Shown here: positions 23,940 to 50,899 of the stretch, piece by piece
Position numbering within the stretch: position 1 is the first letter of the stretch
Layout: each line of letters begins with the position of its first letter
NCBI GenBank assembly: GCA_902791035.1
Contig: CADAUA010000006.1
Coordinates: forward strand, 80,457-144,456
DNA length: 64,000 bases
Source of the DNA: an uncultured Coriobacteriaceae bacterium
Lineage (GTDB): Bacteria > Actinomycetota > Coriobacteriia > Coriobacteriales > Atopobiaceae
Direction of reading: 5' to 3'
The notes under the pieces: model-generated
What the model was told of the DNA's origin: nothing
Databases searched by the model: none
Seen by the model: the letters and a program-made list of their open reading frames with translations, nothing else
Position numbers and translations under genes: made by a program

Positions 23940-23941
23940 CT

Positions 23942-35434: not shown

Positions 35435-35469
35435 CGGCATCCCGGGGTTGTCCTCTACGGGGGTCTACC

Positions 35470-36018
35470 CTACGCCCTTCCGGCCACGCTCTCGACGTGC
35501 TGGAGCTCAAAGCGCCACTCTTGCACGGCATCCGGGTACTTCTCGTGGTCGACGGGAGAGAGGAACATCGCCTTCGGTCGCACCCAGAGCGAACCGTCCC
35601 CGTAGAGCTTGCGATACACCACTAGCTCCTCACCCGTCTCGGAGTCGCGCGCGACGTCCTCGACGAGGTAGTAGTCGCCTTTGAAGTGGCGATAGATCCC
35701 GTGGACCACGAGGGGGTTCTCGGCGGGATCCGGCTTAGGGGCAGGTACGGGACCTGGCTCAGGTGCAGGCACGGGCGCGGGCTCCGGCGCAGCCGGCTCC
35801 TCCGCCACGGCGGCCCTCGCCTCGAGCGCCTGCCTCAGGCACTCCTTCACGCGGCCCCTGCACTTGCCGCACTTGGTTGCCGCGCCAGTCATGCGCTCGA
35901 TGTCCGCCATGCTCGTCGCGCCTGCGTCCACCGCTGCCCTGACGTCCGCCTTGGTCACGTGCTTGCAGCTGCAGACGACGTCCTTCTTACCGCCCTTGCC
36001 ACCGTGCTTCTTGCCCAT
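35470..36018 (-). CDS. Fusion of a BFD-like [2Fe-2S]-binding domain and a DUF1653 domain via a Pro-rich linker
   Basis: The N-terminus carries CSCKH...KCGKC (BFD-like four Cys). A linker APEPAPVPAPEPGPVPAPKP follows. The C-terminus reads YRHFKGDYYLVEDVARDSETGEELVVYRKLYGDGSLWVRP, which is DUF1653-like. Confidence 0.7.
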   Translation of the reverse strand: MGKKHGGKGGKKDVVCSCKHVTKADVRAAVDAGATSMADIERMTGAATKCGKCRGRVKECLRQALEARAAVAEEPAAPEPAPVPAPEPGPVPAPKPDPAENPLVVHGIYRHFKGDYYLVEDVARDSETGEELVVYRKLYGDGSLWVRPKAMFLSPVDHEKYPDAVQEWRFELQHVESVAGRA

Positions 36019-36134: not shown

Positions 36135-36169
36135 GGTCATCTTCCGAGCGTCGGAGTGTGTCCACGCAA

Positions 36170-36582
36170 GGTAGTCCCCCCAGGGGTCCACCCTTCCCCC
36201 TCCCCGCAAGGTAGTCCCCTCCGGGGGTCCACCCGCTGCTGACTTCCGGGATTTCCGGCCGGTACCGGGGGGATAACGTGGTTAGGTAGTCCCCTCCGGG
36301 GGACCACCACCCCCGGCCCCGCAAGGTAGTCCCCTCCAGGGGTCCACCCGTCGCGAACATCCGGGGTCCCCGCCCGGTACCGGCGGGATAACGTGGTTAG
36401 GTAGTCCCCTCCAGGGGTCCACCCTTCCCCCTCCACGCAAGGTAGTCCCCCCCAGGGGGTCCACCAATCGCGAACATCCGGGGTCCCCGGCCGGTACCGG
36501 GGGGGATAGCGTGGTTAGGTAGTCCCCCCAGGGGGTCCACCCCTCCCCGGCCCCGCAAGGTAGTCCCCTCCGGGGGTCCACC
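36170..36582. repeat. Family-3 phased hairpin array: 8 copies of GGTAGTCCCC-N3-4-GGGGTCCACC in four repeats of about 115-118 bp
   Basis: Hairpin starts are 36170, 36210, 36285, 36325, 36400, 36441, 36518 and 36559, giving intervals of 40,75,40,75,41,77,41. The long linkers carry a second GGTACC-centred palindrome. Confidence 0.95.
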
Positions 36583-36602
36583 AATCGCCAAGAAGAGCGA
36601 GC

Positions 36603-37496
36603 CTATCCGTGACGGGCGGGGCTAGACGCCCGATAGGAGCTGGGGCTCTCCCCCACCATCTGGCCGAAGCGGTAGGAGAAGTTGCTCTCGCTCGCGAAGC
36701 CCACCTCGGCGGCCACGCGCGCCACGGGCAGGTCGGTCTCGGCCAGGAGCTCGCGTGCCTTCGTCACCCGCCACCGCAGCAGGTAGTTGTAGGGGGTCGT
36801 ACCCAGCTGCCGCTTGAAGAGCCGCACAAGGTAGGAGGGGCTCACGCCCGCCTCGGCCGCCATCTGCTCCACCGTGAGGGGCTCCCGGTAGCGCTCCCGC
36901 ACCATCCGCATGGCCACCTCCACGGGCTGTGCGTCCCTATCGCTCGTGCTGCCTGCCAGCACCGCCTCGGCCAGGGGCTCCAGGAGCCCGTGCACGGCAA
37001 GGCCCAGCCTGAGCATGGTCCGCGGCCCCTCCCGCGGCATCAGCGAGAAGACCTGGTCGAACTGGCGGCGCGCGAGGGCCCCGTCGAGGGCGCAGGGCAC
37101 CAGCGTCGGCAGGCCCACCACCTGTGCGATTTCTCTAACACCGGAACCGTCCACATGTGCCCAGAGGTGGTACCAGCGCTCCGATCCGGCGGCCGTGCCG
37201 TAGCGTTGGGGACTCCTACAGTCCATGAGGAGGGCCTGGCCGCGCCCCAGACGCACCACCTGCCCGCCCTGCTCCACCTCCCCCTGACCATCCAGCGTGA
37301 AAAACACGAGGTAAGAGTCCTTATTGGTACGCTCGGTGCTAAAGCCGCCCAGCGCGTAGAAGCACCCCGCCTCCGCGCACTGGAAGGGCTGGGCGAGCTC
37401 GCGGGCGCTTAGGGTCGACCTCAGCCAGGTGCTGCGTGGTTCCAGGTCCAGGTTATAGCTCAGCACAGGTCCGTCCTTCTCTAGAGATAAGTTCAT
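36603..37496 (-). CDS. AraC-family transcriptional regulator (cupin sensor plus HTH), divergent from the rhaB operon
   Basis: The C-terminal AraC HTH reads VSPSYLVRLFKRQLGTTPYNYLLRWRV...FASESNFSYRF. The N-terminal region is cupin-like. Confidence 0.85.
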   Translation of the reverse strand: MNLSLEKDGPVLSYNLDLEPRSTWLRSTLSARELAQPFQCAEAGCFYALGGFSTERTNKDSYLVFFTLDGQGEVEQGGQVVRLGRGQALLMDCRSPQRYGTAAGSERWYHLWAHVDGSGVREIAQVVGLPTLVPCALDGALARRQFDQVFSLMPREGPRTMLRLGLAVHGLLEPLAEAVLAGSTSDRDAQPVEVAMRMVRERYREPLTVEQMAAEAGVSPSYLVRLFKRQLGTTPYNYLLRWRVTKARELLAETDLPVARVAAEVGFASESNFSYRFGQMVGESPSSYRASSPARHG

Positions 37497-37626
37497 TTAT
37501 TCGAAAGTCCTTGTCATTCTAGCGTATGGAGCGCAACGTGGCGGCGGCGTATGCTCTGTGCCAGCAAGCACGGGATGGGCACGGGCGGGCCGGCGGGCAG
37601 CCGGCCGCGCGAGAACGGGGGACGCA

Positions 37627-39057
37627 ATGGCACGGCATCTGGCTATAGACATCGGCGCCTCGAGCGGGCGCGGCATCGTGGGCGAGGTCGTGGACGGCCG
37701 CATGGTGCTCACCGAGGTCCACCGCTTCGAGAACGGGCTCGTGCGCCGCGGCGGCCATCTCTGCTGGGACGTGGAGTCCCTGGCGGCAAACGTTGTGGAG
37801 AGCCTGGCCGCGGCCGAGGCACAGGGCCTGCGCCCCGCGACCGTGGGCATCGACACCTGGGCCGTGGACTTCGCGCTCGTGGACAAGGACGGCCAGCTCG
37901 TGGGCGACACCGTGGGCTACCGAGACTCCCGCACGGCTGGGGTACGCGACGAGCTGGAGGCCTCGGGCATCCTGGCCTTCGCCGACCACTACGCCACCAC
38001 GGGCATCCAGTACCAGCAGTTCAACACCTGCTACCAGCTGGTGGCGCTCAAGCGCGAGCACCCCGAGCAGCTGGAGCAGGCGGACGCCCTTCTCCTCATG
38101 CCCGACTACCTTGGCTTCCTCCTCACCGGCGTGCGCGCCGCGGAGTACACCAACGCCAGCACCACCGCCCTTGTCTCCGCCGCCACGCGCGACTGGGACG
38201 ACGCCCTGATCGAGCGCCTGGGCCTGCCGCGCCGGCTCTTCCAGCCCATCGCCCAGCCCGGCACCGTCCTGGGGACGCTCCGGCCCGAGCTCGCGGGGCG
38301 CCTGGGCTTCGACTGCGAGGCCGTCCTGCCCGCCACGCACGACACCGGGTCCGCCTGGCTTGCCGTGCCCGCGCCGGACGACCGCTCCGTCTACCTGAGC
38401 TCCGGCACCTGGAGCCTCATGGGCGCCGACCTGGGCGAAGCCGTGACCTCCCCCGCCAGCGCCGAGGCCAACTTCACGAACGAGGGCGGCGCCGAGGGCC
38501 GCTTCCGCTACCTCAAGAACATCATGGGCCTCTGGATGATCCAGAACGTGCGGCGCGAGTCGGGCGACGCCGAGGGCAACCTGCCCAGCTGGGGCGACCT
38601 CGTGGCAGCGGCCGAGGCCGCGCGCGCCGAGGGCTTCCACGCCGTCGTGGACGCCGACGAGCCCCGCTTCCTGGCCCCGGAGAGCATGAGCGAGGCCGTG
38701 CGCGAGGCCTGCCGCGAGTCGGGCCAGCCGGTGCCCGCCACCACGGGCCAGCTCGCCCTCACGGTCTACGACTCCCTGGCCGCCGACTACGCCCGCACGG
38801 TCCGCGAGCTCGCGCGCCTCACAGGCACCGTCTACGAGCGCATCAACGTCGTGGGTGGCGGGGCGAACAACGCCTATCTCAACCAGGCCACTGCCGATGC
38901 CTGCGGGCTTCCCGTCCTGGCCGGCCCCACCGAGGGCGCGGCGCTCGGCAACCTCATGGTGCAGTTCGTGCACGCGGGCGAGTACGCGAGCCTTTCCGAG
39001 GCACGCGCGGCCATCCCCGCAAGCTTCCCGATCCGCGAGTTCCAACCCCGCGGCTAA
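37627..39057 (+). CDS. rhaB: Rhamnulokinase (FGGY family)
   Basis: Close motif-level match to E. coli RhaB from memory: DIGASSGR, HRFENG, IDTWAVDF, YRDSRT, LLMPDY, SSGTWSLMG, NEGGAEGR.RYLKNIMGLW. Confidence 0.9.
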   Translation: MARHLAIDIGASSGRGIVGEVVDGRMVLTEVHRFENGLVRRGGHLCWDVESLAANVVESLAAAEAQGLRPATVGIDTWAVDFALVDKDGQLVGDTVGYRDSRTAGVRDELEASGILAFADHYATTGIQYQQFNTCYQLVALKREHPEQLEQADALLLMPDYLGFLLTGVRAAEYTNASTTALVSAATRDWDDALIERLGLPRRLFQPIAQPGTVLGTLRPELAGRLGFDCEAVLPATHDTGSAWLAVPAPDDRSVYLSSGTWSLMGADLGEAVTSPASAEANFTNEGGAEGRFRYLKNIMGLWMIQNVRRESGDAEGNLPSWGDLVAAAEAARAEGFHAVVDADEPRFLAPESMSEAVREACRESGQPVPATTGQLALTVYDSLAADYARTVRELARLTGTVYERINVVGGGANNAYLNQATADACGLPVLAGPTEGAALGNLMVQFVHAGEYASLSEARAAIPASFPIREFQPRG

Positions 39058-39068
39058 CCAGACAGGCC

Positions 39069-39098
39069 GTACCAAGAGGGTCAGGCACTCTTGGCACG
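39069..39098. repeat. Family-2 dispersed hairpin repeat (degenerate) in the rhaB-isomerase gap
   Basis: GTACCAAGAGGGTC-AGG-CACTCTTGGCACG. Confidence 0.7.
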
Positions 39099-39135
39099 CG
39101 AAGCGGGGCCCGAGCCCCGAGACAAGGAGAAGGAC

Positions 39136-40554
39136 ATGCTCGTAGAGACCAAGGCCAAGGTTGGCGTCTTCTCGATCGCCCTGCAGGCCTACCTGCCCCA
39201 GTTCCCCCAGCTGGTGCCGGAGTTCGAGAGCCAGTACGCCGCCTTCAAGGCCAGCCTGCCCACCACGGTGGAGCTCGTGGACGGCGGCATGGTAACCACC
39301 AAGGAGGCCGCCGCGGCCGCGGGCGACAAGTTCCGCGCCGCCGACGTGGACCTCGTGATCCTCCAGCTCCTCACCTACTGCACCTCCTACAACATGCTGC
39401 CCGCCGTGCGCGACCTGGACGTCCCCGTGGTGCTCGTGAACCTCCAGAAGGTCCGCTGCCTGGACTTCGCCACCGCAGGCACCGCCGAGTGGCTGGGCCT
39501 GGGCTACGCGGGCGGCGCCGTAGGCGAGATGGTGGCCGACCTGGAGCGCGCCGGCAAGCGCCACGCCGTGGTCACCGGCGTCCAGGGCGATGACCCCGAG
39601 GTCGCCGCGCAGATCGAGGACTGGTGCCGCGCCGCCCAGGTGCGCCGCCGCTTCCGCACCACCAACCTGGCCCAGATCGGCCGCCCCTACCCCGGCATGA
39701 TGGACCTCTACATCGACGAGACCAACCTCTACAACCGCATGGGCGTCTACACCAAGCAGTTCGACTGGGAGCGCATGTGGGCTATCGCCGACGACGTGAC
39801 CGACGAGGCTGCCATCGCCGCCAAGGTGGCCGACATCCACGGCACCTTCGACGTCCTGGGCGACTATGACGAGAAGGACATCCACGAGATGGCCCGCTAC
39901 GTCCTGGCCTTCGAACAGTGGGTCCGCGACGAGGACCTGGGCTTCGTGGCCTCCCACTACGACGGCCTGGCCCAGGGCAAGGCGGGCGTGCTGGACTCCA
40001 TGCTGATCCCGGCCTTCTCCATGCTCATCAAGCAGGGCGTGGCCTGCGCCGTGGAGGGCGACATCAAGGTGGCCCTGGGCATGTCCATCATGAAGACCAT
40101 CTCCGGAGCCTGCCAGCTCTCCGAGTTCTACACCTTCGACTTCGACGACGACGTGGTCCTCATCGGCCACTCCGGCTCCGGCGACGCGGACTTCTCCACC
40201 GCCCGCAAGGCCACGATGGAGATCGTCCCCGTCTTCCACGGCAAGACCGGCGGCGGCTACCTCACGCGCTTCTACCCCAAGGCGGGCCCCGTGACCTACC
40301 TGGGCATCACGCAGGACGCAGACGGCCACTTCAAGTTCGTGGTGAGCGAGGGCACGATCGAGGACGGCCCCACCTTGGGCAACGGCGACACGACCTTCCG
40401 CACGCGCTTCTCCATCGGCGCGCGCGAGTGGAACAACCGCTGGTGCGAGTGCGGCCCCACCCACCACTTCGCGGCCGCCCAGGGCTCCTGGACCGACACC
40501 ATCGAGAAGGTCGCCAAGGTCCTAAACGTGCCCGCGCAGGTCGTGTGCAGGTAG
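39136..40554 (+). CDS. AraA (L-arabinose isomerase)-family sugar isomerase, candidate L-rhamnose isomerase by context
   Basis: The ATG at 39136 follows AAGGAGAAGG. It aligns by eye to E. coli AraA catalytic regions: VEGDIKVA vs GEGDWKTA, LSEFYTFDF...IGHSG vs FMEDYTYHF...LGSHM, and GPTHHFAAA vs GGAHHTVFS. Confidence 0.65.
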   Translation: MLVETKAKVGVFSIALQAYLPQFPQLVPEFESQYAAFKASLPTTVELVDGGMVTTKEAAAAAGDKFRAADVDLVILQLLTYCTSYNMLPAVRDLDVPVVLVNLQKVRCLDFATAGTAEWLGLGYAGGAVGEMVADLERAGKRHAVVTGVQGDDPEVAAQIEDWCRAAQVRRRFRTTNLAQIGRPYPGMMDLYIDETNLYNRMGVYTKQFDWERMWAIADDVTDEAAIAAKVADIHGTFDVLGDYDEKDIHEMARYVLAFEQWVRDEDLGFVASHYDGLAQGKAGVLDSMLIPAFSMLIKQGVACAVEGDIKVALGMSIMKTISGACQLSEFYTFDFDDDVVLIGHSGSGDADFSTARKATMEIVPVFHGKTGGGYLTRFYPKAGPVTYLGITQDADGHFKFVVSEGTIEDGPTLGNGDTTFRTRFSIGAREWNNRWCECGPTHHFAAAQGSWTDTIEKVAKVLNVPAQVVCR

Positions 40555-40563
40555 TTCCTGGCG

Positions 40564-40607
40564 GGTTCTTGTCAGGTTCTTGTCAGGTTCTTGTCAGGTT
40601 CTTGTCA
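40564..40607. repeat. 11-bp perfect tandem repeat x4 (GGTTCTTGTCA) in the isomerase-rhaD gap
   Basis: The four units are 40564-40574, 40575-40585, 40586-40596 and 40597-40607. Confidence 0.95.
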
Positions 40608-40667
40608 ACTAGTCATCCGAATGCAGGCATCACGAAAACAGGCGTCACGAAGAGAAGGGAAACCATC

Positions 40668-41495
40668 ATGGCAATCGAGGATCTGGACTTCGTCAAGGGC
40701 TTCTGCAGGATGTGCGACGACGGCTTCGCCCAGGGCTGGCACGAGCGCAACGGCGGCAACCTCACCTACCTCATGAGCACGGACGAGGTCGCCGCTGCCC
40801 GCCCCGGCTTCGACGAGCCCCGCGAGTGGGTGGCCATGGGCGTGGAGGACGCCACGCTGGCCGGGCGCTTCTTCCTCTCCACCGGCTCCGGCAAGTACAT
40901 GCGCAACGTCATGGACGACCCCGCCCACAACATCGGCATCGTGGAGATCAACGAGACCGGCAGCGCCTACCGCATCGTGTGGGGCCTGCTCGACGGCGCC
41001 AAGCCCACGAGCGAGTTCCCCAGCCACTACATGAACCACTGCGTGCGCGTGGCCGCCGACCCCACCAACCGCGTGATCTACCACTCCCACACCCCTGGCG
41101 TCATCGAGATGAGCTTCATCGTGCCGCTCGAGGACCGCGCCTTCTCCCGCATCCTCTGGCAGATGATGACCGAGTGCGTGGTCGTGTTCCCGCAGGGCGT
41201 GGGCGTGGTGCCCTGGATGGTGCCCGGCGGCTCCGACATCGCCTACGCCACGAGCAAGCTCATGGCCAAGTTCCCCGCCGCCGTGTGGGCCCACCACGGG
41301 CTCTTCGTGTCCGGCCCGGACTTCGACACCGCCTTCGGCCTGGCCCACACCATCGAGAAGGCCGCCGAGCTCTACATCGCCACGCGCGCGGCCAACGGCG
41401 GGTCCGACAAGTTCCTGAACTACATCACCGACCAGGACCTCAAGGACACCTGCCGCGACTTCCACGTGGAGATCAACCCCGACTTCGTGGACTAG
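40668..41495 (+). CDS. rhaD: Rhamnulose-1-phosphate aldolase (class II)
   Basis: The ATG at 40668 follows GAGAAGGGA. It matches E. coli RhaD over GWHERNGGNLT, TGSGKYMRNV, PTSEFPSH, ECVVVFPQGVGVVPWMVPG and HGLFVSGPDFDTAFGL. The product is 275 aa. Confidence 0.9.
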   Translation: MAIEDLDFVKGFCRMCDDGFAQGWHERNGGNLTYLMSTDEVAAARPGFDEPREWVAMGVEDATLAGRFFLSTGSGKYMRNVMDDPAHNIGIVEINETGSAYRIVWGLLDGAKPTSEFPSHYMNHCVRVAADPTNRVIYHSHTPGVIEMSFIVPLEDRAFSRILWQMMTECVVVFPQGVGVVPWMVPGGSDIAYATSKLMAKFPAAVWAHHGLFVSGPDFDTAFGLAHTIEKAAELYIATRAANGGSDKFLNYITDQDLKDTCRDFHVEINPDFVD

Positions 41496-41503
41496 CCCTG
41501 GTC

Positions 41504-41612
41504 GCGCCACGGGTGTCCCGCGCCACGGGTTTCCCGTGCCACGGGTGTCCCGTGCCAAGGGTGTCCCGCGCCACGGGTGTCCCGCGCCACGGGTGTCTGA
41601 CGCTTTTGGCAT
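41504..41612. repeat. 16-bp tandem repeat (5 units, GCGCCACGGGTGTCCC) ending in a family-2 hairpin
   Basis: Units start at 41504, 41520, 41536, 41552 and 41568. A sixth copy continues as GCCACGGGTGTC-TGA-CGCTTTTGGCATGG. Adjacent units form CACGGG-TGT-CCCGTG mini-hairpins. Confidence 0.9.
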
Positions 41613-41653
41613 GGGCCGCACGACAACGAAGCACTGTCGCCCGCCCTGTTGCA

Positions 41654-41710
41654 CCCCTCTCGTCTTCAGGTAGCATGTTCTTGTTTGTGGTTGCCTGACG
41701 ACGAGAGGGG
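41654..41710 (+). promoter_or_regulatory. 17-bp-stem hairpin sequestering the Shine-Dalgarno of the Zn-ADH gene
   Basis: CCCCTCTCGTCTTCAGG - 23 nt loop - CCTGACGACGAGAGGGG, with one mismatch. The 3' arm contains GAGAGGGG, 7 nt upstream of the ATG at 41717. Confidence 0.5.
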
Positions 41711-41716
41711 TTCCCT

Positions 41717-42823
41717 ATGCAGATCAAGGCTATGGTCATCCACGAGAAGAACGGTCCCTACCAGCTCGAGGACGTGGAGCTGGACGAGCCCCGGGAGGGC
41801 GAGGTCCTCATCCGCAACGTGGCCTCGGGCATCTGCCACACCGACGAGTTTGGCCGCTCCCAGGGCGTGCCCATCGCGCTGCCGCTGGTACTGGGCCACG
41901 AGGGCGCCGGCATCGTGGAGAAGGTCGGCCCCGGCGTCACGGACCTCAAGCCCGGGGACCACGTGGGCGTGACCTACGCCTTTGACGGCACCTGCCCCGC
42001 CTGCCGCAACCGCGAGCCCTACTACTGCGTCAACTTCAACCAGATCAACTTCGGTGGCGTCATCGGCACCAACCGCACCACCCGCCTGCACCAGAACGGC
42101 AAGCCGGTGAGCATGTTCTTTGGCCAGTCCAGCTTCGCCACCTACTCCGTGGCGTCGGCCGCGAGCGTCTCCAAGGTGGATGACGACGTGGACCTGGCCC
42201 TCGTGGCCCCGCTGGGCTGCGGCGTGCAGACCGGCGCCGGCGCCATGATCAACGTGGCCAAGGTCGGCTCCGAGGACCAGGTGGCCGTGTACGGCTGCGG
42301 CGCCGTGGGCATGTCCGCCATCATGGGCGCGGCAGTGGCCGGCTGCAAGACCATCATCGCGGTGGGCGGCAACCCGCGCAGCCTGGAGCTCGCCCGCGAG
42401 CTCGGCGCCACGCATACCATCAACCGCAAGGAGGTGGAGGACGTGCCCGCCGAGGTCCAGCGCATCACCGGCACCGGCGCCGACGTGGCCCTCGACACCT
42501 CGGGCAACGGACGCATGATGACCAACGCCATCCGCGGCCTCAAGTACCACGGCACCTTCCTGCCCGTGGCCGCGGCCGGCACCATCGAGCACTTCGACGT
42601 GGGCAACGACATCATGATGCCCATGCGCACCATGAAGGGCACCTGCGAGGGCGAGTCCGACCCCAAGACCTTCGTCCCGCAGATGGTGCGCTGGTACAAG
42701 GAGGGCCGCTTCCCCGTGGACCGCATCCTCTCCTTCTACGACTTCAAGGACATCCAGCAGGCCCTGGACGACTCCGCCAACGGCAAGATCATCAAGGCGG
42801 TCCTGCGCATCTCGCAGCAGTAG
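41717..42823 (+). CDS. Zinc-dependent alcohol dehydrogenase (MDR family), candidate lactaldehyde reductase by context
   Basis: The catalytic zinc motif is GICHTD...GHEGAG. The structural zinc Cys cluster is CPACRNREPYYC. The Rossmann motif is GCGAVG. Confidence 0.85.
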   Translation: MQIKAMVIHEKNGPYQLEDVELDEPREGEVLIRNVASGICHTDEFGRSQGVPIALPLVLGHEGAGIVEKVGPGVTDLKPGDHVGVTYAFDGTCPACRNREPYYCVNFNQINFGGVIGTNRTTRLHQNGKPVSMFFGQSSFATYSVASAASVSKVDDDVDLALVAPLGCGVQTGAGAMINVAKVGSEDQVAVYGCGAVGMSAIMGAAVAGCKTIIAVGGNPRSLELARELGATHTINRKEVEDVPAEVQRITGTGADVALDTSGNGRMMTNAIRGLKYHGTFLPVAAAGTIEHFDVGNDIMMPMRTMKGTCEGESDPKTFVPQMVRWYKEGRFPVDRILSFYDFKDIQQALDDSANGKIIKAVLRISQQ

Positions 42824-42914
42824 GTGAGCCGCGCCTGCAAGCACGGTGGGCAACGGGCACCGCGCTTGCGAGAGGGTGCACTTGTTGCCTGTTGTGGCCG
42901 TGAAGTTGCCCCCC

Positions 42915-43040
42915 TTGTCCCAGCTCGTTCTCTTTGTCCCAGCTCGTTCTCTTTGTCACAGCTCGTTCTCTTTGTCCCACCTCGTTCTCTTTGTCCCAGC
43001 TCGTTCTCTTTGTCCCACCTCGTTCTCTTTGTCCCAACTC
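42915..43040. repeat. 19-bp tandem repeat, about 6.5 units (TTGTCCCAGCTCGTTCTCT), downstream of the ADH gene
   Basis: Unit starts are 42915, 42934, 42953, 42972, 42991, 43010 and 43029, an exact 19-bp phase. The unit is not a multiple of 3. Confidence 0.95.
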
Positions 43041-43042
43041 AT

Positions 43043-43376
43043 GGGTGGTCCCCCTCGGAGGGCCACCCACTACTTATGTCTGCAGGTTTCACGAGAGATT
43101 CGGTACATAACACCGATAGGTAGCCCTCTGCGCAGGACCATCTTTGTCGGGCCCCAAGGGTAGACCCCTCTAGGGGTCCACCCACTCTTGACGAACGGGG
43201 ACTTTTGGGTCAAGCCCGGGAATAACACCGATAGGTAGTCCTCTCCGCAGGACCATCTTTGTCGGGCCCCAAGGGTAGACCCCTCTAGGGGTCCACCCAC
43301 TCTTGACGAACGGGGACTACCAGGTCAAACCCGGGAATAACACCGATAGGTAGCCCTTCTCAGCGGAGTACCAACC
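43043..43376. repeat. Family-3 phased hairpin array (6 hairpins, 115-bp period)
   Basis: Hairpins start at 43043, 43119, 43158, 43234, 43273 and 43349, with intervals 39/76 from 43119 onwards. The 115-bp unit ...ATAACACCGATA GGTAG...CCAAG GGTAGACCCCTCTAGGGGTCCACCC... repeats nearly exactly. Confidence 0.95.
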
Positions 43377-43535
43377 CATCGGCCGGCGCAATGGTCCCCG
43401 CCCAGCTTAGACTGAAAGCAATCTTTCCAGATGACTCTTCTGTCTACTGTATATTTCCTCACGGCCGTGGGTATCCTTACCCTCGCCACCAAACGCCCTC
43501 CAACAACACTCGGTGGTCTATCTGAGAGGAGGGCC

Positions 43536-44555
43536 ATGACTGTCATCATCACCGGTTCGTCAGCGCTCGAATACCTGCGGGCAAAGCCGCCAACCATATG
43601 GCCGGCCCCTCGGTTCGAGGAACCCTTTAACTTGGCCAGCAACCCCACGGACTTTCGCCAGGCAGCCAAGCTTGATGCGAGCAGTCTTGGACTGGCTCGC
43701 AGGCCCATCCATGTGCTCGTTCCGAGAGGACATTATCACAGCAACTCACGCAACATCCGAACACATGAGCTCATGCTCAACCCCATACCCGGCGACCTGC
43801 TCCTGGAAGTGGCGCCGGATGTTCTAGTGTGTGGTCCGGAGCTTACCTACTTCCAGACCAGCCCGCGTCGCTCACTCGTGGGCGACGTCGTGCTTGGTTG
43901 CGAACTCACTGGAGAGTACTCTCATTTCTCTCAGCTCGTGTCCGGCTACTATGAACGCCCGCCCCTGACCTCGATTGAGTCACTCGTCTGCGCCAGTGAG
44001 CGGCTGTCTGGCCTCTTTGGGATCAAGAGCGCAACCAAGAACCTCGAATGGGTCTGCGAGTGCTCACGCTCGCCGATGGAAACCGTCCTGGCCACCGAGC
44101 TCTGCCTTCCCACACAAGTCGGCGGGGAGGGTTTCGCAAAACCAACCTTGAACTACGAAGTGCCACTGGACGACGCAGCCAAGGCGATCACACACACCAA
44201 GACGTCCTACGTAGACATTGCCTGGCCGGACGCCATGGTAGGCGTGGAGTACGACAGCGACGAATGGCACACCGACAAAGACAAGGACAGACGGCGAGCC
44301 GAAGCGCTGCAACACATGGGCTGGGACATCTACACCGTGCACCTAGACCAAATGCACAAGGTCAGCGAGCTCGAGAAGACCGTCGCCCTCCTTAGGGGGC
44401 ACGCGCCACAGCTAGAGGAGGCGGAAGAGCCGAGCCGGACGCTCAGACGTCAACTCCACGAGAAGCTCCTGCGTGCCACCAGGTTCGGGATTGGTATGAG
44501 CGCGGCCCTCTTTCCTCCGTCCGTCAATGCGAGAGGAATCAAGCTCCATATCTGA
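43536..44555 (+). CDS. DUF559-like (Vsr/restriction-endonuclease-fold) domain protein, lower G+C than its surroundings
   Basis: The ATG at 43536 follows GAGAGGAGGG. The C-terminal VDIAWPDAMVGVEYDSDEWHTDKDKDRRRAEALQHMGWDIYTV matches the DUF559 pattern. Codon third positions look less G/C-biased by eye. Confidence 0.6.
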   Translation: MTVIITGSSALEYLRAKPPTIWPAPRFEEPFNLASNPTDFRQAAKLDASSLGLARRPIHVLVPRGHYHSNSRNIRTHELMLNPIPGDLLLEVAPDVLVCGPELTYFQTSPRRSLVGDVVLGCELTGEYSHFSQLVSGYYERPPLTSIESLVCASERLSGLFGIKSATKNLEWVCECSRSPMETVLATELCLPTQVGGEGFAKPTLNYEVPLDDAAKAITHTKTSYVDIAWPDAMVGVEYDSDEWHTDKDKDRRRAEALQHMGWDIYTVHLDQMHKVSELEKTVALLRGHAPQLEEAEEPSRTLRRQLHEKLLRATRFGIGMSAALFPPSVNARGIKLHI

Positions 44556-44648
44556 CGACAGGATCCAAGGGAGCCACTGGGGTCATAGGCTCGCACGAAC
44601 CAGTCTTCGCACCGACATCCCTATCGGGCACAGCAGATCACGACGGCG

Positions 44649-44906
44649 ATAGGCACTCCCGCAGAGGGCCACCGTCGACTCGGCCGACTTGGTATCCCCC
44701 TCTAGGAGACCACCAATACTGGACATTGGAAGATTCTTGGGCCATACAGCCAGATAACAGCGATAGGTAGTCCTCTATAGGGGACTACGGCAGCTCGCCT
44801 TACCTAGGTAGTCCTCCCTAGGGGACCATCCTGGTTTGATATTTGTAGATTTCGGCTCCGGACTCCTAAGTAACGGTGCTAGGTAGTCCTGAGCGTTCCC
44901 TACTTC
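44649..44906. repeat. Family-3 phased hairpin array (5 degenerate hairpins)
   Basis: Hairpin starts are 44649, 44691, 44766, 44807 and 44882, giving intervals 42,75,41,75. The last hairpin overlaps the EamA gene stop region. Confidence 0.85.
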
Positions 44907-45874
44907 TATGCCGCGCGATGGAACACGTCAGAAGCCGCCGAGACCTCGCAAAGCAGGGCTGGGCTACCCGGGGCGGCCTCAGGCTGGGTCAGCACAGCCT
45001 CGGCGACCTGGGGCTCCGCGACCTTCTTGCCACGCCCGACCAGTTCGCTCGCCGCAGCGCCGCCCAGCACCAGCACGGCACCCAGCACACGCGCCGGGCC
45101 AAAGGCCTCGCCCAGCACCAGCGCAGAGAGGACCACCGCGGAGAGCGGCTCCAGGTAGCCGAGCACGCTCACGCTCTGGACGTCGAGGGCACCCATCGCG
45201 GAGAAGTACAGGTAGCAACCGAGGCCGGTATTCACGAGGCCCAGCACCAGGATGGGAGCGACCTCGACCACACCCGGCATCTGGAGCCCACCGGTCACGA
45301 CGGCATAGGCGGCAGCCACGGCAAAGCTCGCCACCAGCTGGATCGTGGCTGCCTCGAGCCCCTGCACATCGGGCGCACCCTTGCCAGCGATGACCATCAC
45401 GGCATAGAAGGCCGCCGCACCCAGGCCACACAGCACGCCGGCCGGCTCCAGCTGCACGCCTCCGGCGGAGACGACGAGGAAGGCACCGGCGAGCACGGCC
45501 CCAAAGCAGGCAAGCTGACGCGCACGCAGCCTCTGGCGCATCACGACCGGAGAGAGGGCCATCACGATCACGGGGCCCAGATAGTAGAGCAGCGTGGAGG
45601 TACCGACACCGGCAAGCTTGTATCCCTCGAAGAGGAAGACCCAGCTCGCACCGAGGGCCGCACCGGAGGCTGCGAGCGAGGCCACCTGGCGCGGGTGCTC
45701 GCGACCGGCGAGGGACGTACGGCTGAGCGCGAGCAGGGCTACCAGCAGGGCGGCACCCAGGAAGGTGCGGAGAAGCACGATCTCGTGGCTGGGCAGCAGG
45801 ATGGCCGAGGCCACGATGCCGTTGCTGCCAAAGAGCGCGAGCGAGACGAGATACTTGATGTGCTGCTTGGACAT
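44906..45874 (-). CDS. EamA/DMT-superfamily transporter
   Basis: The ATG at 45874 begins a protein with about ten hydrophobic segments in two EamA-like halves. The hydrophilic C-terminal tail extends into repeat DNA. Confidence 0.85.
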   Translation of the reverse strand: MSKQHIKYLVSLALFGSNGIVASAILLPSHEIVLLRTFLGAALLVALLALSRTSLAGREHPRQVASLAASGAALGASWVFLFEGYKLAGVGTSTLLYYLGPVIVMALSPVVMRQRLRARQLACFGAVLAGAFLVVSAGGVQLEPAGVLCGLGAAAFYAVMVIAGKGAPDVQGLEAATIQLVASFAVAAAYAVVTGGLQMPGVVEVAPILVLGLVNTGLGCYLYFSAMGALDVQSVSVLGYLEPLSAVVLSALVLGEAFGPARVLGAVLVLGGAAASELVGRGKKVAEPQVAEAVLTQPEAAPGSPALLCEVSAASDVFHRAA

Positions 45875-46006
45875 GTGCACCCCCGTATTTCTTACCAAAC
45901 ACATGGTGGCAGCATTATGTACATGCGTAAAGCGCGACTATTGCATGCGTTCCATGAGTAATTCGCATACAATTGCAGCAAGTCCATAGGCGGGAACGGA
46001 GGGCTC

Positions 46007-46876
46007 ATGGAGGGCAACATAGCCAAGTACCAGGCTCTTTGCGAGGTTGCGCGGCTGGGGAGCCTGACGGCCGCCGCCCGCGAGCTGGGCTACTCCCAGT
46101 CCGGCATGAGCCGTATAATGCAGGACCTTGAGCGCGAGTGGGGCGTCACCCTGCTCAGCCGTGGACGGCATGGAATCACGCTCACGCCCGATGGCGATCG
46201 GATCCTTCCCATGGTCCAGCGCGTCGTGGACGACCAGCGGCGCGTGAACGAGCTCGTGGGCGAGGTCCGCGGGCTCGAGACGGGGTCGGTACGCGTGGGG
46301 ACCTTCTCGTCGGTGGCCACCTACCGGCTGCCCCGCGTGCTCGGACACCTGCAGGCGGCGCATCCCAAGGTGGAGTACGAGCTCCTCATGGGCGACTGGG
46401 GCGAGATCGAGCGCTGGACGAACACGGGGCGAGTGGACGTCGGGTTCATCCCCTTTGCGCCGGCGGCACCCCTGCAGTCGCGCGTGGTCGAGAAGGACGA
46501 GCTCATGGCGGTCGTCCCGCGAGAGCACCCACTTGCGGCGCGGGCCGAGGTCCGGCTGGGGGAACTCACGGCTGATCCCTATCTCATGCTGGAGCGAGGG
46601 GACAACGGTGTGATCCCCCGGATGTTCGCGGATGCCGGGCTGGAGCCCCGGGTGTGGCTCACCACCTGGGATGACTACGCGATCATGTCCATGGTGGAGG
46701 CGGGGCTGGGCGTCTCCGTCCTGCCCCGCCTCATTCTGCAGCGCTGCCCCTTCGACGTTACCATCCTGCCGTTGGCGGGCCATCCCTACCGCGAGATCAA
46801 CGTCATCTGGCGCGACGAGGCCACGCTGTCCCGCGCAGCACGCGACTTCCTCGAGAGCCTGGACACGTGGGGATAA
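46007..46876 (+). CDS. LysR-family transcriptional regulator, divergent from the EamA gene
   Basis: The N-terminal HTH is LGSLTAAARELGYSQSGMSRIMQDLE. A LysR substrate-binding domain follows. GGAGGG lies upstream. Confidence 0.9.
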   Translation: MEGNIAKYQALCEVARLGSLTAAARELGYSQSGMSRIMQDLEREWGVTLLSRGRHGITLTPDGDRILPMVQRVVDDQRRVNELVGEVRGLETGSVRVGTFSSVATYRLPRVLGHLQAAHPKVEYELLMGDWGEIERWTNTGRVDVGFIPFAPAAPLQSRVVEKDELMAVVPREHPLAARAEVRLGELTADPYLMLERGDNGVIPRMFADAGLEPRVWLTTWDDYAIMSMVEAGLGVSVLPRLILQRCPFDVTILPLAGHPYREINVIWRDEATLSRAARDFLESLDTWG

Positions 46877-46885
46877 GCGCGCGGA

Positions 46886-46950
46886 CGTGACAAGAACTCC
46901 GGAACGTGACAGGAACTCCGACCCCATGTCGCGGACCCCCTGTCGCGGGG
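46886..46950. repeat. Family-1 dispersed repeat, degenerate copy
   Basis: CGTGACAAGAACTCCGGAA and CGTGACAGGAACTCCGACCCC are followed by ATGTCGCGGACCCCCTGTCGCGGGG. It lies between convergent lysR and htpG. Confidence 0.7.
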
Positions 46951-46955
46951 CGGGA

Positions 46956-48929
46956 CTACATGAGGCTCGTGACGTTCTTGGCAAACTCCACCGGGTCGTC
47001 GATGGGCAGGCCCTCCACCAGCAGGGCCTGGTCGTAGAGCACCTGGCCCAGGAGCTTGAGCCGGTCCTTGTCGCCCGCGTCCTCGGCCGCCACCAGCTTG
47101 CCGAATACCGGATGGCCCGGGTTGAGCTGCAGCACGCGCCTGACCTCGGGCATGCCCTCGGAACCACCCGGGTTCTGGGCCGCCACGCGCTCCATCTCGA
47201 GCGAGATCGGACCCTCGCTCGCCACGGCCGCCGGCGCCTCGCCAAGGCCCGCCACGACCTTGACCTCGCCGACCTTCTCGCCCAGGGCCTCCTTGAGGTC
47301 GGCAAGAAGGGCGTCCTTGCCCTCGGCGGCCTCCTCGGCCCGCTTCTTCTCGTCCTCGGTGGCCAGGTCCAGGTTGGCGTCGGACACGTTCTGGAACTCG
47401 ACGTCGCGTGCCTCGGTGCCCTTGTGCTCGGAGTCACCCGCCTGCGAGTCCACGTGCCAGCTGCGCATCATCTGGAACATGAACTCGTCAACATCCTCGG
47501 TGCAGAGAAGCACGTCAAAGCCATGGTCCACGGCATTCTTGACCACGGGCATCTTGCCCAGGCGGTCCTGGGAGTCGCCAGCGGCGTAGTAGATCCTGTC
47601 CTGGCCCTCCTTCATGCCGGCAACGTACTCGGCGAAGGTGACCTGCTTGCCCTCGCGCGCGGACCAGAAGAGCAGGAGCTGCCCCAGGTCGGCGGCGTTG
47701 GAGCCGTAGGCACTGTAGATGCCGAACTTGAGGCCGCGGCCGAAGTTCTTGAAGAACTTCTCGTATGCCTCGCGGTCGTTGTCGCGCATGTCGCAGAGCT
47801 CGGAGTGGACCTTCTTCTCCACGCGGCGGGCGATGGCGCGCAGCTGGGAGTTCTGCTGCAGGGTCTCGCGGGAGATGTTGAGCGTCACGTCGGGCGAGTC
47901 CACGATGCCGTGCACGAAGTTGTAGTAATCAGGCAGGAGGTCGGCGCACTTCTCCTGGATCATGACGTTCGAGGAGTAGAGCGCCAAGCCCTTCTCGTAG
48001 TCCTTGCTGTAGAGGTCCCAGGGCTGCTGGCTGGGGATGAAGAGAAGCGCGTCGTAGCTCAACGCGCCCTCGGCGTGGAAGCTGATGGTGCGCGCGGGCT
48101 TCTCCCAGTCGTGGAAGGTGGACGTGTAGAACTCGTCGTAGTCCTTCTGCTCCACCTCCGAGCTGCGCTTCTTCCAGATGGGGGTCATGGAGTTGAGGGT
48201 CTCGAGCTCCTGGTAGCTCTCGTACTCGGGCTCGTAGTCCTCGGGGGCGTCCTCGGGCTTGGGCTTCTGGCGGCTCTTCTCCACCATCATGCGCACGGGA
48301 TAGCGCACGTAGTTGCTGTAGCGCCTGACCAGGTCGCGCAGGCCCCACTCGGAGAGGAACTTGTCGGTGTCCTCGTCGTCCGTGGAGGGGCGCAGATGCA
48401 GGGTGATGGTGGTGCCGTGGTCGTCCGCGCCGTCGCGCTCGCCGGGCTCGGCCGCGCCCACGGTATAGCCCGTCACGCCGTCCGACTCCCAGGCGTTGGC
48501 GGCGTCGGCCCCCAGCGCGCGGGACACCACACGAACGCGGTCGGCCACCATGAAGGCGGAGTAGAAGCCCACGCCAAACTGGCCGATGATGTCCATGTCG
48601 TCGCCCTGGTGCTCGGCATTGGCCTGCTTGAACTCCTGCGAGCCGGAGTGGGCTATGGTGCCAAGGTTCTTGTCGAGCTCATCGGCCGTCATGCCGATGC
48701 CGTTGTCGCTCACGGTGATGGTGCGGGCGTCCTTGTCGAAGGCCAGGTCGATGGCCAGGGCGTCGCGGTCCACCTGGACGTCCGGGTTGTTCACGGCCTC
48801 GAAGCTCAGCTTGTCCAGCGCGTCCGACGCGTTGGAGATGAGCTCGCGCAGGAAGATCTCCTTGTTCGTATAGATGGAGTTGATCATCAGGTCGAGGAGC
48901 TTCTTGCTCTCGGTCTTGAACTGCCTCAT
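46956..48929 (-). CDS. htpG: Molecular chaperone HtpG (Hsp90)
   Basis: The ATG at 48929 begins MRQFKTESKKLLDLMINSIYTNKEIFLRELISNASDALDK, the GHKL ATPase N-domain. The product is 657 aa. The track ORF's extra 108 codons are Arg/Pro/Gly-rich. Confidence 0.95.
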   Translation of the reverse strand: MRQFKTESKKLLDLMINSIYTNKEIFLRELISNASDALDKLSFEAVNNPDVQVDRDALAIDLAFDKDARTITVSDNGIGMTADELDKNLGTIAHSGSQEFKQANAEHQGDDMDIIGQFGVGFYSAFMVADRVRVVSRALGADAANAWESDGVTGYTVGAAEPGERDGADDHGTTITLHLRPSTDDEDTDKFLSEWGLRDLVRRYSNYVRYPVRMMVEKSRQKPKPEDAPEDYEPEYESYQELETLNSMTPIWKKRSSEVEQKDYDEFYTSTFHDWEKPARTISFHAEGALSYDALLFIPSQQPWDLYSKDYEKGLALYSSNVMIQEKCADLLPDYYNFVHGIVDSPDVTLNISRETLQQNSQLRAIARRVEKKVHSELCDMRDNDREAYEKFFKNFGRGLKFGIYSAYGSNAADLGQLLLFWSAREGKQVTFAEYVAGMKEGQDRIYYAAGDSQDRLGKMPVVKNAVDHGFDVLLCTEDVDEFMFQMMRSWHVDSQAGDSEHKGTEARDVEFQNVSDANLDLATEDEKKRAEEAAEGKDALLADLKEALGEKVGEVKVVAGLGEAPAAVASEGPISLEMERVAAQNPGGSEGMPEVRRVLQLNPGHPVFGKLVAAEDAGDKDRLKLLGQVLYDQALLVEGLPIDDPVEFAKNVTSLM

Positions 48930-49057
48930 GGTGCCGTGCTTCCTTTCCGCTCGTACAGGTACAGGAGACGTTCTACCCGAACCGCGGAAGTTATACGCAG
49001 ACAAGGGCCACGACAAGGCCGATTCCCCAAGCCATGCCAAGGGTGGGCCCGCGGCCA

Positions 49058-49870: not shown

Positions 49871-49884
49871 GACTCCCCCATCCC

Positions 49885-49913: not shown

Positions 49914-49930
49914 ACACCCGCGTGGTAGAC

Positions 49931-50892: not shown

Positions 50893-50899
50893 TGCCGCA

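Follow-up and report, generated by a model that had tools for sequence, protein, structure and literature searches.

Few non-coding elements of bacterial genomes are as abundant as REP/BIME repeats. To our knowledge their only dedicated enzyme is the RAYT transposase, which presumably copies them and is found essentially in Proteobacteria. BIMEs consist of regularly spaced REPs whose orientation alternates, and the rayT gene of E. coli is flanked by BIME-2 (Nunvar 2010, PMC2817692). GTAG-tagged REPs are short (20-40 bp), GC-rich stem-loops with an unpaired GTAG (GTRG) tag; they usually occur in >100 dispersed copies, and the RAYT gene is flanked by REPs (PMC3733652, PMC2817692). Di Nocera, De Gregorio & Rocco 2013 (PMC3733652) described HH, TT and HT dimers of these elements, as well as clusters in which dimers are reiterated in tandem together with flanking DNA, where dimer spacers keep their length but not their sequence and G-T pairs are frequent.

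In the window, the 64,000-nucleotide stretch of Coriobacteriia DNA analysed here, we found a family of hairpins with the consensus GGTAG-YCCC-loop-GGGR-CYACC, comprising approximately 26 copies (including degenerate end copies at 43349, 44650, 44882 and 50559) in four same-strand arrays plus one solo copy. An earlier note on this DNA had reported about 25 copies of the motif, in a single orientation and exclusively in intergenic DNA. The strict form of that pattern has nine exact matches, compared with 0.00 expected from 100 shuffles, and a covariance model built from 24 copies detected 22 plus-strand sites in the window at E <= 6e-5, all within 36166-50895, along with one weaker site at 35442-35473. 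The array copies either score better on the plus strand or are near-perfect palindromes, and a gene map supported by GC3 and Pfam places every copy between genes, which bears out all three parts of the earlier description. Each hairpin is 23-25 nt long and GC-rich, with a stem of 9-10 bp and a variable loop of 3-5 nt, and pairing involves 83.5% of cells in an alignment of 23 distinct copies. Of 24 aligned copies, 21 carry G-GTAG (the exceptions are GGTGG at 43044, GGTAT at 44691 and GATAG at 50827), and the GTAG lies inside the stem, where its pairing partner is CYAC and 16 of 23 copies contain an A.C mismatch. Stems stay complementary, with some compensatory changes, although covariation is only weakly above shuffles in this small and closely related family (both partners have changed in three pairs, and the observed score was equalled or exceeded by 51 of 500 shuffles). 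With loops that vary and stems that remain complementary, a stem-loop or cruciform is a likelier recognition target than a rigid duplex operator.

The solo hairpin (35446-35469; GGTTGTCCTCTACGGGGGTCTACC as read on the plus strand) lies between convergent BglG-like and DUF1653 genes and is given no strand, with covariance-model E values of 4e-4 on the plus strand and 6e-3 on the minus strand. Array 1 (36170-36582, plus strand) comprises eight hairpins of the form GGTAGTCCCC-loop-GGGGWCCACC, which start at 36170, 36210, 36285, 36325, 36400, 36441, 36518 and 36559; these starts, and the resulting intervals of 40, 75, 40, 75, 41, 77 and 41, agree exactly with those listed in the earlier note. This array is flanked by a DUF1653/BFD gene (35470-36018, minus strand) and an AraC-type gene (36603-37496, minus strand), is resolved by Tandem Repeats Finder into 3.6 copies of a 115-bp period with 85% matches, and has an identical sequence in three contigs that come from other samples (L120, L121 and L124). 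Array 2 (43044-43376, plus strand) consists of six hairpins in the order B, A, B, A, B and degenerate A, with starts spanning 43044-43349 at intervals of 75, 40, 75, 40 and 75. It is directly abutted by a plus-strand tandem array of a 19-mer (42915-43040; TTGTCCCAGCTCGTTCTCT, 6.6 copies) that possibly belongs to the same repeat island, and that has six copies in the window, L122 and L125 and four in L120 and L124. Array 3 (44650-44905, plus strand) has five hairpins (degenerate A, B, A, B and truncated A) with starts spanning 44650-44882 at intervals of 41, 75, 41 and 75; comparison with L124 and L125 shows that a 27-bp deletion has removed the 3' half of the last hairpin in the window. Array 4 (50559-50891, plus strand) has seven hairpins, the first of which is degenerate (GCCCGTTCCCTCAAGGGAACTACC), with starts spanning 50559-50868 at intervals of 41, 39, 75, 39, 74 and 41, and lies between a YbaK-like gene (49931-50485, minus strand) and an ABC-transporter gene (51227-53137, minus strand). 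Substitutions in the L125 version of array 4 keep the pairing.

Across the arrays, spacings of 39-41 bp alternate with spacings of 74-77 bp, so the alternation of 39-42 and 73-77 bp that had been noted at three further loci stands, except that arrays 2 and 4 begin one hairpin earlier than described. The repeat unit is a 115-bp head-to-tail hairpin pair, with linkers of 50-52 nt (n = 10) and 15-17 nt (n = 12). Between arrays, the long linkers share an identity of 0.55, compared with 0.52 +/- 0.05 for shuffles, which upholds the claim that linker sequences differ by locus. Two short elements are common to the arrays, namely an ATAAC-N5-TA box before hairpin A and a CAAGG junction before hairpin B, so the ATAAC box is not the sole shared one as had been supposed. 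Boxes also sit at fixed distances outside the hairpins: ATAAC precedes hairpin A by 7 nt, and a GAC/GAT/TAT motif follows hairpin B by approximately 10 nt. Linker sequence decays, then, while the stems, the boxes and the lengths of the linkers are conserved. Within arrays 1 and 2, the linkers of neighbouring units are 77-90% identical, indicating recent tandem duplicates, and Tandem Repeats Finder scores their units as 85-94% alike. This similarity, together with repeat lengths that vary by strain, shows that the arrays grow by tandem duplication of the 115-bp two-hairpin unit; the comparison between strains that the earlier note had proposed revealed this variation in both the 27-bp deletion and the four or six copies of the 19-mer. 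Array spacings correspond to approximately 4, 7 and 11 helical turns, and, taking 10.5 bp per turn, none of the seven spacing classes from four lineages departs from a whole number of turns by more than 0.16 turn (P of about 0.0003-0.004 in a post hoc test that was devised once the numbers had been seen). The retention of linker length without sequence, at spacings close to whole helical turns, fits selection on geometry. The suggestion that geometry rather than tandem duplication explains the arrays is therefore supported in its first half only, as duplication clearly builds them.

This array design is not unprecedented, since tandem dimer clusters with length-keeping spacers are known for GTAG-tagged REPs (PMC3733652). 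Like those elements, the hairpins feature a GTAG at the 5' end, a stem of 9-10 bp, a short loop and G-T pairs in the stem, and form dimers 20-100 bp apart that are reiterated with their flanking DNA, with spacers that keep length and not sequence. Unlike them, the GTAG is paired within the stem and no RAYT gene was found, and HT dimers, which are the exception in known GTAG-REP families, are the only form in these arrays. The resemblance to BIMEs that had been drawn earlier is likewise partial: the elements are REP-like imperfect palindromes in phased intergenic clusters, but all of them are head-to-tail instead of alternating.

All copies fall within 15.5 kb (35.4-50.9 kb) of the approximately 70 kb of the Olsenella-like source genome that was read, and the covariance model detected no site in the remaining 48 kb of the window or in 6 kb beyond it (approximately 54 kb). 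Approximately 100 kb of sequence from relatives contained no hairpins of this family, and relatives located via alcohol-dehydrogenase (ADH) homologues with 82-85% identity had neither such hairpins nor conserved synteny. The pattern GGTAGTCCYCN{3,8}GGWCCACC, which is loose, gave at least 119 single chance matches in unrelated taxa of a genome collection, none clustered among the matches listed, while a two-hairpin pattern returned one coding chance match in IMG/VR and eight stretches in JGI metagenomes, none of the hairpin family. The earlier note had suggested looking for a RAYT gene and for Rfam matches. Neither Y1_Tnp nor any other transposase, and hence no RAYT gene, was present among the window ORFs or the called genes of the flanking contigs, and no TnpA (Y1) or TnpB gene was found in the window or flanking contigs. 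Rfam gave no match at gathering score over the window and none over the arrays at E <= 1. There were no tRNA or tRNA-like elements, and blastn of the arrays against plasmids and phages gave no match. A CRISPR array was rejected on the basis that hairpins differ within an array (e.g. array 4), the spacers of arrays 1 and 2 are duplicated, spacer lengths alternate between two values and no cas-type genes were found. Integron attC sites, Xer/dif-like sites and BglG RAT sites were rejected on anatomy, as the repeats vary within an array and lack R''/R' cores, have no 11-6-11 layout and are unlike the RAT consensus, respectively. The literature searched for the motif string, or for a link of DUF559/Vsr-like proteins with repeats, contained nothing relevant.

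Arrays 2 and 3 bracket a gene (43536-44555, plus strand) that the earlier reading of phased arrays had missed. Array 2 ends 160 bp upstream of this gene, in the same orientation, and array 3 begins 95 bp past its stop codon. The gene has a GC content of 57-60% versus 68% for the window and is thus compositionally foreign. It encodes a protein of 339 aa whose N-terminal approximately 200 aa form a conserved domain of unknown fold, followed by a Vsr/DUF559/MTES_1575-type PD-(D/E)xK nuclease-like domain with the motif residues D227, E238-Y-D240, H245, D247, R254 and G262-W263. The core motif D ... E-x-D ... H ... D-x(2)-R ... G-W varies little or not at all among 31 homologues, 25 of which give weak matches to Pfam MTES_1575; the window protein itself scores 26 bits against a curated cut-off of 38.2. 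The best matches to solved structures are weak: PDB 3R3P (I-Bth0305I), with E 0.3 in both the profile and the fold comparison, and 1VSR (Vsr), with E 0.8. These values lie under the curated thresholds but agree with a place for the protein in the Vsr/DUF559/MTES_1575 PD-(D/E)xK nuclease superfamily. PADLOC returned a weak nuclease-domain match (PDC-S37, E 9e-4) without any toxin-antitoxin or defence assignment. The wider family comprises 7,045 clusters at 50% identity, and homologue clusters number 1,890 at E <= 1e-30; viral contigs and phage records yielded no homologue. Neither array 1 nor array 4 has an associated nuclease gene, which implies that arrays are able to exist without one. No pseudogene copies of the gene lie near these two arrays, and neither an empty site nor a second copy of the gene was found.

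The bracketing by arrays 2 and 3 led to the prediction that homologues would also be flanked by palindromes, which was then tested in relatives. In four further lineages (38-50% identity), the homologous gene is located at unrelated loci, with different neighbours in every lineage, and is flanked by lineage-specific palindromes that are often arranged as alternating pairs in direct orientation. In L153 (50% identity), nine hairpins of the form GGTTGTTCCCT-loop-AGGGAACAACC, five upstream and four downstream, recur with a period of 60-63. In L157 (38%), eight copies of a 35-nt palindrome, all oriented with the gene, lie five upstream and three downstream; these are of two alternating types with spacings of 52-53 and 94-98, none is found elsewhere in 21 kb, and the gene is additionally bracketed by a 175-bp direct repeat (87% identity). 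Both flanks of the L156 gene (47%) carry the same 28-nt AT-rich palindrome, and in L145-L152 (49%) three palindromes lie upstream of the gene. Adjoining palindromes in L145 have inverted loops, so head-to-tail orientation is not universal. All eight independent contigs of L145-L152 end within 1.1 kb upstream of the gene. Short lengths of homologue contigs in general were set aside as a weak sign of flanking repeats, because they are normal in that collection. The covariance model of the window hairpins did not detect the relatives' flanking palindromes, whose sequences differ and which have no GTAG tag. Lineage-specific palindromes therefore recur beside homologous genes at unrelated loci. Two distant Collinsella homologues (26-30% identity) have no flanking arrays, which, given the size of the wider family, means that the gene-array link may be limited to one clade.

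Arrays that bracket the gene, and relatives bracketed by their own, different palindromes, suggest a partnership of the REP/RAYT kind with another enzyme. As in REP/BIME and RAYT systems, short GC-rich imperfect palindromes form regularly spaced extragenic clusters, the gene is bracketed by palindromes of its own whose sequence differs from one gene lineage to another, and gene-less clusters exist elsewhere. The differences are that RAYT is a Y1/HUH transposase and the protein here carries a Vsr/DUF559-like PD-(D/E)xK-type domain, that the repeats are head-to-tail with a copy number that is so far low and local, and that the host belongs to the Coriobacteriia and not the Proteobacteria. Judging from the sequence, we see roughly even chances that the hairpins are the cognate recognition elements of the nuclease-like protein and that gene and arrays constitute one module. 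The gene and its flanking arrays of head-to-tail hairpin pairs would then form a single co-evolving unit, probably selfish or mobile, with arrays 1 and 4 and the solo copy as gene-less satellites within 8 kb. The protein, probably a multimer, would bind along a single face of the helix at the stem-loops or palindromes, as the spacing of approximately 4, 7 and 11 turns would allow, and binding or cleavage could serve propagation of the module, either by homing into arrays or by spreading them; alternatively, it could control the gene. More tentatively, it is possible that Coriobacteriia possess a putative nuclease of approximately 340 aa with a novel N-terminal domain that reads phased head-to-tail stem-loop pairs and maintains them, spreads them or homes into them, while gene and palindromes co-diversify. 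Intergenic repeats of several kinds are abundant in these genomes, which makes it easier for a gene and an array to adjoin by chance. The window itself contains numerous further tandem repeats.

Several alternatives share part of this evidence. The arrays could be RNA-level elements, acting as processing or stability elements, as terminators or as a repeat RNA that partners the nuclease-like protein, as in type III toxin-antitoxin systems. In ToxIN, a tandem repeat array lies just upstream of a nuclease-fold gene on the same strand, and Vsr-like RAP/FASTK domains bind RNA. Array 2 likewise consists of tandem, lineage-specific repeats directly upstream of a gene on the same strand, RAP-type mitoribosomal proteins are among the top fold matches of the protein, G-U pairs number 31 versus 11 between the strands, and folding z-scores reach -5.7 to -6.7 for array-4 units and -3.3 to -3.6 for array-2 units. 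Units of arrays 1 and 3, however, fold no better than shuffles, and the family as a whole was not credited with a larger conserved fold of the 115-nt unit, because its outer stems are present in arrays 2 and 4 and absent in arrays 1 and 3. A consistent RNA strand bias was also rejected: folding is better on the strand antisense to the gene in the window, on the sense strand in L157 and on neither strand in L153. The two genes that flank array 1, and the two that flank array 4, are encoded on the strand opposite to the array, promoter and terminator signals at the arrays are no more frequent than in shuffles, and helical phasing is a property of DNA; the lack of Rfam matches and of a PADLOC toxin-antitoxin assignment points the same way. 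The protein further differs from ToxIN in its fold, which is probably Vsr-like, and arrays also lie downstream and at gene-less loci. We therefore consider an RNA-level role unlikely.

A second possibility, which we regard as quite unlikely, is that the arrays represent an ordinary GTAG-tagged REP family of tandem head-to-tail dimers served by a RAYT (Y1/HUH) encoded elsewhere, with the nuclease-like gene as a bystander. The size, GC-richness, imperfect pairing, extragenic location and G-GTAG start of the hairpins all suit this reading, and tandem-reiterated dimers, length-keeping spacers and G-T pairs have precedent (PMC3733652). Against it stand the absence of any transposase from the window genes and the called genes of the flanking contigs, the confinement of copies to 15.5 kb, with none in the other approximately 54 kb or in approximately 100 kb of relatives, and the stem-internal position of the GTAG. 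Furthermore, the palindromes flanking the gene in relatives have no GTAG tag, HT dimers are rare in known families (PMC3733652) and there is no report of GTAG REPs in Actinomycetota. The arrays could instead be a neutral minisatellite, in which a 115-bp unit with two chance hairpins spread locally, so that its spacing is inherited and the adjacent gene coincidental. Local confinement, the similarity of units in arrays 1 and 2, the strain variation in the 27-bp deletion and 19-mer copy number and the many other tandem repeats of the window would all be expected from such a process. Neutral decay should erode every part of the unit, yet stems, boxes and lengths are kept while linkers are at shuffle identity; the L125 substitutions preserve pairing, and the design recurs with other sequences beside homologous genes in four other lineages. 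A purely neutral origin is therefore very unlikely.

The reading of gene and arrays as one module also invites comparison with other systems in which repeats flank a gene. IS200/IS605 elements and their miniature derivatives (PATEs) have imperfect hairpins in direct orientation at both ends, with conserved short boxes at fixed distances outside the hairpins, and their mechanism does not require fixed interior and exterior spacings. The arrays resemble them in layout only, with direct hairpins on both sides of a gene and boxes at fixed distances, but contain multiple hairpin pairs per end rather than one, and both interior and exterior spacings are fixed. In plasmid centromeres and iterons, such as parC1/parC2 around parAB of pB171, phased short repeats flank the gene for their binding protein, and repeats and protein co-vary. 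Helically phased repeats on both sides of a gene and co-variation of repeat and protein are likewise features of the present arrays. Unlike plasmid centromeres, these are chromosomal, with neither a partition ATPase nor a replication gene, their repeats are hairpin-forming palindromes with variable loops, and the protein has a nuclease-type domain. Finally, the Vsr-like/EDxHD homing endonuclease I-Bth0305I (PDB 3R3P; PMC3239194) shares the motif E-x-D ... H ... D ... R ... G with the nuclease-like protein, within the weak match (E 0.3) described above. Selfish behaviour as in homing endonucleases would explain both the foreign GC content and the variable loci of the gene. Unlike I-Bth0305I, the gene is free-standing within intergenic repeat arrays rather than in an intron or intein, and its N-terminal domain is unrelated.

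If the proposed partnership is correct, bacterial systems of palindromic repeats with an associated nuclease would have originated a second time, independently, pointing to repeated evolution of enzyme-palindrome partnerships, here in a Gram-positive lineage that is common in animal-associated metagenomes. The partnership would also provide a function for a large family (thousands of clusters) annotated only as hypothetical protein. With its fixed 40/75-bp geometry and its co-variation of protein and site, it would be a clean system in which to study the reading of extruded hairpins by proteins. Separately, the arrays break short-read assemblies and differ by strain, which makes them relevant to metagenome binning and strain typing.

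Array 1 (36170-36582, + strand) was found to consist, as the earlier note had described, of eight copies of GGTAGTCCCC-loop-GGGGWCCACC, which start at 36170, 36210, 36285, 36325, 36400, 36441, 36518 and 36559. The strict pattern of that note gave nine exact matches in the window, compared with 0.00 expected, and the remaining array loci were recovered with a more permissive pattern and with a scan that took the stem into account. A covariance model of the hairpin (R1), trained on 24 copies, detected 22 sites on the + strand of the window (E ≤ 6e-5) and weakly matched a solo hairpin at 35442-35473. The total, including degenerate terminal copies, is approximately 26, close to the 25 or so previously noted. 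Arrays 2-4 (43044-43376, 44650-44905 and 50559-50891, + strand) were also confirmed as loci, but arrays 2 and 4 start one hairpin earlier than reported, at 43044 and 50559. Alternating start-to-start intervals of 39-41 (n = 12) and 74-77 (n = 10) characterise all four arrays, and Tandem Repeats Finder assigned a period of 115 to both 36169-36588 (3.6 copies, 85% matches) and 43107-43357 (2.2 copies, 94% matches).

Each 115-bp unit comprises, in order, an ATAAC-N5-TA box, hairpin A, a 15-17-nt linker with CAA(G) at its 3' end, hairpin B and a 50-52-nt linker. Linker sequence differs between arrays while length stays, as had been proposed: the identity of long linkers between arrays is 0.55, versus 0.52 ± 0.05 in shuffles, and at least seven have diverged from one another, with lengths of 51 nt in eight out of ten and of 50 and 52 nt in the other two. 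The hairpin stem has 10 positions. Of 23 distinct copies, 16 have an A facing C at position 4 and six have A-U there; positions 6 and 9 vary between UA, UG, CG and AU. Stem pairs on the + strand comprise 186 Watson-Crick, 11 G-T and 53 mismatches, compared with 186, 31 and 33, respectively, on the - strand. Stem covariation is only weakly above shuffles because the hairpins form a small family of close relatives. Complementarity of the stems is kept despite loops of variable length, which favours a stem-loop or cruciform as the form that is recognised.

The window has a GC content of 68%, a gene order of priA-def-rsmB ... yloV(fakA)-recG ... plsX-acpP-rnc-smc-ftsY-ffh and an alcohol dehydrogenase with 82% identity to a homologue named Olsenella sp., which points to an uncultured, Olsenella-like source within the Coriobacteriia. 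All hairpin copies lie within 35.4-50.9 kb; R1 detected no copy in the remaining 48 kb of the window or in the 6 kb past its left end. There were likewise no copies in ∼100 kb from relatives, the two-hairpin pattern yielded one chance match only in IMG/VR and no member of the window hairpin family in JGI metagenomes, and blastn of the arrays against plasmids and phages gave no match. Over the sequence covered, the results are compatible with a motif restricted to the window, an outcome that the earlier note had named as refuting its proposal.

Arrays 2 and 3 flank a gene (43536-44555, + strand, GC 57-60%) whose 339 aa product gives only a weak MTES_1575 match. Of 31 homologues aligned at full length, 25 match MTES_1575 weakly and three match DUF559. 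D227, E238-Y, H245, R254 and G262-W263 are invariant in this alignment and D247 is nearly so, whereas D240 is a majority residue (<90%), a few members having Asn, Tyr or Lys instead. Among PDB sequences, a profile search returned only I-Bth0305I (3R3P; E 0.31), with an alignment that spans the motif. The AlphaFold2 model is confident (pLDDT 88, pTM 0.87); Foldseek gave no strong match to it, only a weak list headed by RAP-type mitoribosomal proteins, 3R3P, Vsr and VRR-NUC; the N-terminal domain matched no solved structure. Many polar residues are conserved across the N-terminal 200 aa (E12, R15, H59, H77, E102, E123, Y128, H130 and Y139 are invariant or nearly invariant), and the domain may form a second catalytic or nucleic-acid-binding site. 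The 54 close homologue clusters encode proteins of ∼338 aa, nearly all full-length members being 38-56% identical, with P0188 (31%) as the single outlier. At E ≤ 1e-3, 1e-10 and 1e-30, the wider family amounts to 7,045, 3,608 and 1,890 clusters, respectively; its named members, for example from Gordonibacter, are "hypothetical protein", and no paper tying the family to repeats was found in the literature.

The prediction that the gene is flanked by its own palindromes was checked in four further lineages, where the neighbouring genes differ each time. In L153 (50% identity), five hairpins of GGTTGTTCCCT-loop-AGGGAACAACC are located upstream (3641-3917) and four downstream (5033-5247), with a period of 60-63. 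In L157 (38% identity, Atopobiaceae), eight copies of AGAGGGAGTATACCGGTGGGTATACAGAGTC share the orientation of the gene and form two alternating types (52-53 / 94-98 bp); the gene is bracketed by a 175-bp direct repeat, and the remainder of the 21 kb has no further copies. A 28-nt AT-rich palindrome is present on both flanks in L156 (47% identity), plus a separate short-unit tandem array, and three 30-nt palindromes lie upstream in L145-L152 (49% identity), where all eight independent contigs stop ≤1.1 kb upstream of the gene. R1 matched none of these palindromes, so the sequences have diverged and the design has been kept. The association covers five lineages, a small sample, and is absent in two distant Collinsella homologues (26-30% identity), which have no flanking palindromes. 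No empty site, that is, the locus without the gene, was seen. A distant homologue (26% identity) is the sole content of a 1785 bp record, NZ_OY725722.1 (Collinsella aerofaciens 'plasmid 11'), submitted as a plasmid circle, which is probably an assembly fragment and conceivably an excised circle.

The spacing classes are 40 and 75 (window), 62 (L153), 64 (L145) and 53, 96 and 64 (L157); with 10.5 bp per turn, each deviates by ≤0.16 turn from an integer. In a post hoc test on few classes, such helical phasing has a probability of ∼0.0003 (maximum deviation) or 0.004 (mean). This whole-turn spacing suggests that the sites are placed on one face of the duplex.

The best-supported explanation is that the nuclease-like protein has the hairpin-pair arrays as its cognate sites. 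Together, gene and arrays would make up a co-evolving, probably selfish unit that parallels rayT and its BIMEs, and arrays 1 and 4 would be satellites without the gene. The arrays could have been generated or spread by the protein, or the gene could home into pre-existing arrays and split them, and these variants fit equally well; we infer binding, cleavage and mobility for the protein or module. One rival explanation is that the hairpins belong to a classical REP family whose RAYT is encoded at a distance. Among described classes, GTAG-tagged REPs come closest; they form head-head, tail-tail and, rarely, head-tail dimers with spacers of constant length and variable sequence, show frequent G-T pairs and occur in clusters where dimers and flanking DNA are repeated in tandem; reported hosts are Proteobacteria, Cyanobacteria, Chloroflexi and the Planctomycetes-Verrucomicrobia-Chlamydiae group, not Actinobacteria (Di Nocera et al. 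2013, PMC3733652). RAYT genes always have inverted REPs on their flanks, and E. coli rayT has BIME-2 on either side (PMC2817692). The BIME-like reading in the earlier note holds for the regular phased spacing but not for orientation, which is uniformly head-to-tail in the window hairpins and alternates in BIMEs (PMC2817692), and the RAYT gene sought on that reading did not emerge, with no Y1 transposase within the window or flanking contigs.

The hairpins might instead be RNA-level elements; the arrays and window gave no match in Rfam, the search returned no tRNA, and no promoter or terminator signals exceeded shuffles. Alternatively, the arrays could be a neutral minisatellite. The window locus is also present in several ENA metagenome contigs, and arrays 1-4 do not differ among L120, L121 and L124. 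Variation in repeat length between strains was observed as a 27-bp deletion in array 3 of the window (44890-44891 versus L124:13137-13163), which leaves the last hairpin without its 3' half (intact in two other contigs, GGTAGTCCTCTGCAGAGGACTACC), and in a 19-mer tandem array (TTGTCCCAGCTCGTTCTCT, 42915-43040) directly upstream of and abutting array 2, of which L122 and L125 have six copies, like the window, and L120 and L124 four. In L125, three substitutions within the first complete hairpin of array 4 preserve its pairing. Short contigs of the locus terminate within arrays, and L125 itself ends within array 4, in Illumina adapter sequence. When compared with window 37630-50879, L125 is 98% identical from 39135 onward; its FGGY-kinase gene just upstream is only 76% identical and sequence further left is unrelated. 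The contig represents either recombination in a strain, or a segment with arrays 2-4 shared by horizontal transfer, or else a chimeric assembly.

Several other repeats were encountered. A 22-mer, GCGTGACASSAGCTCCGACCCC, occurs in 13 copies (0 expected by chance) at five loci (3701-3795, 14965-15073, 17294-17337, 20156-20177 and 51165-51208) and forms a second, more dispersed family, mostly of tandem doublets that twice make inverted pairs and hence long palindromes; in appearance it comes closer than the window hairpins do to a REP/REPIN-type family spread over the genome. Micro- and minisatellites are unusually abundant in this genome. A dense patch of several unrelated tandem repeats, with units of 15, 16, 21 and 122 nt, occupies ∼22.0-23.2 kb (22033-22456 and 23164-23228). 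A GC3 frame screen gave no ORF at 21.6-24.9 kb, and an RsmB-like ORF (22473-24185, - strand) overlaps most of this patch, with the repeats at 22033-22456 immediately preceding the start listed for it. Further short tandem arrays, within intergenic DNA or close to it, are found at 40564-40607 (11-mer, 4 copies), 41503-41597 (16-mer, 5.9), 59043-59113 (23-mer, 3.1) and 59281-59365 (16-mer, 5.4). In the JGI contig Ga0307516_10097018 (L133:830-910), four iteron-like copies of GGTAGTCCCCAAACAGGGAC, which are only superficially like the window hairpin's 5' arm, lie inside the apparent C-terminal part of a replication-initiator-like ORF. Three unrelated high-GC JGI contigs (L130:1770-2000, L132 and L134; 70-72% GC) contain arrays built from GGGTAGCCCCC...GGCGGGCTATC units, the two exact matches being separated by 36 nt; these constitute another GTAG-containing palindromic array type of uncultured bacteria.
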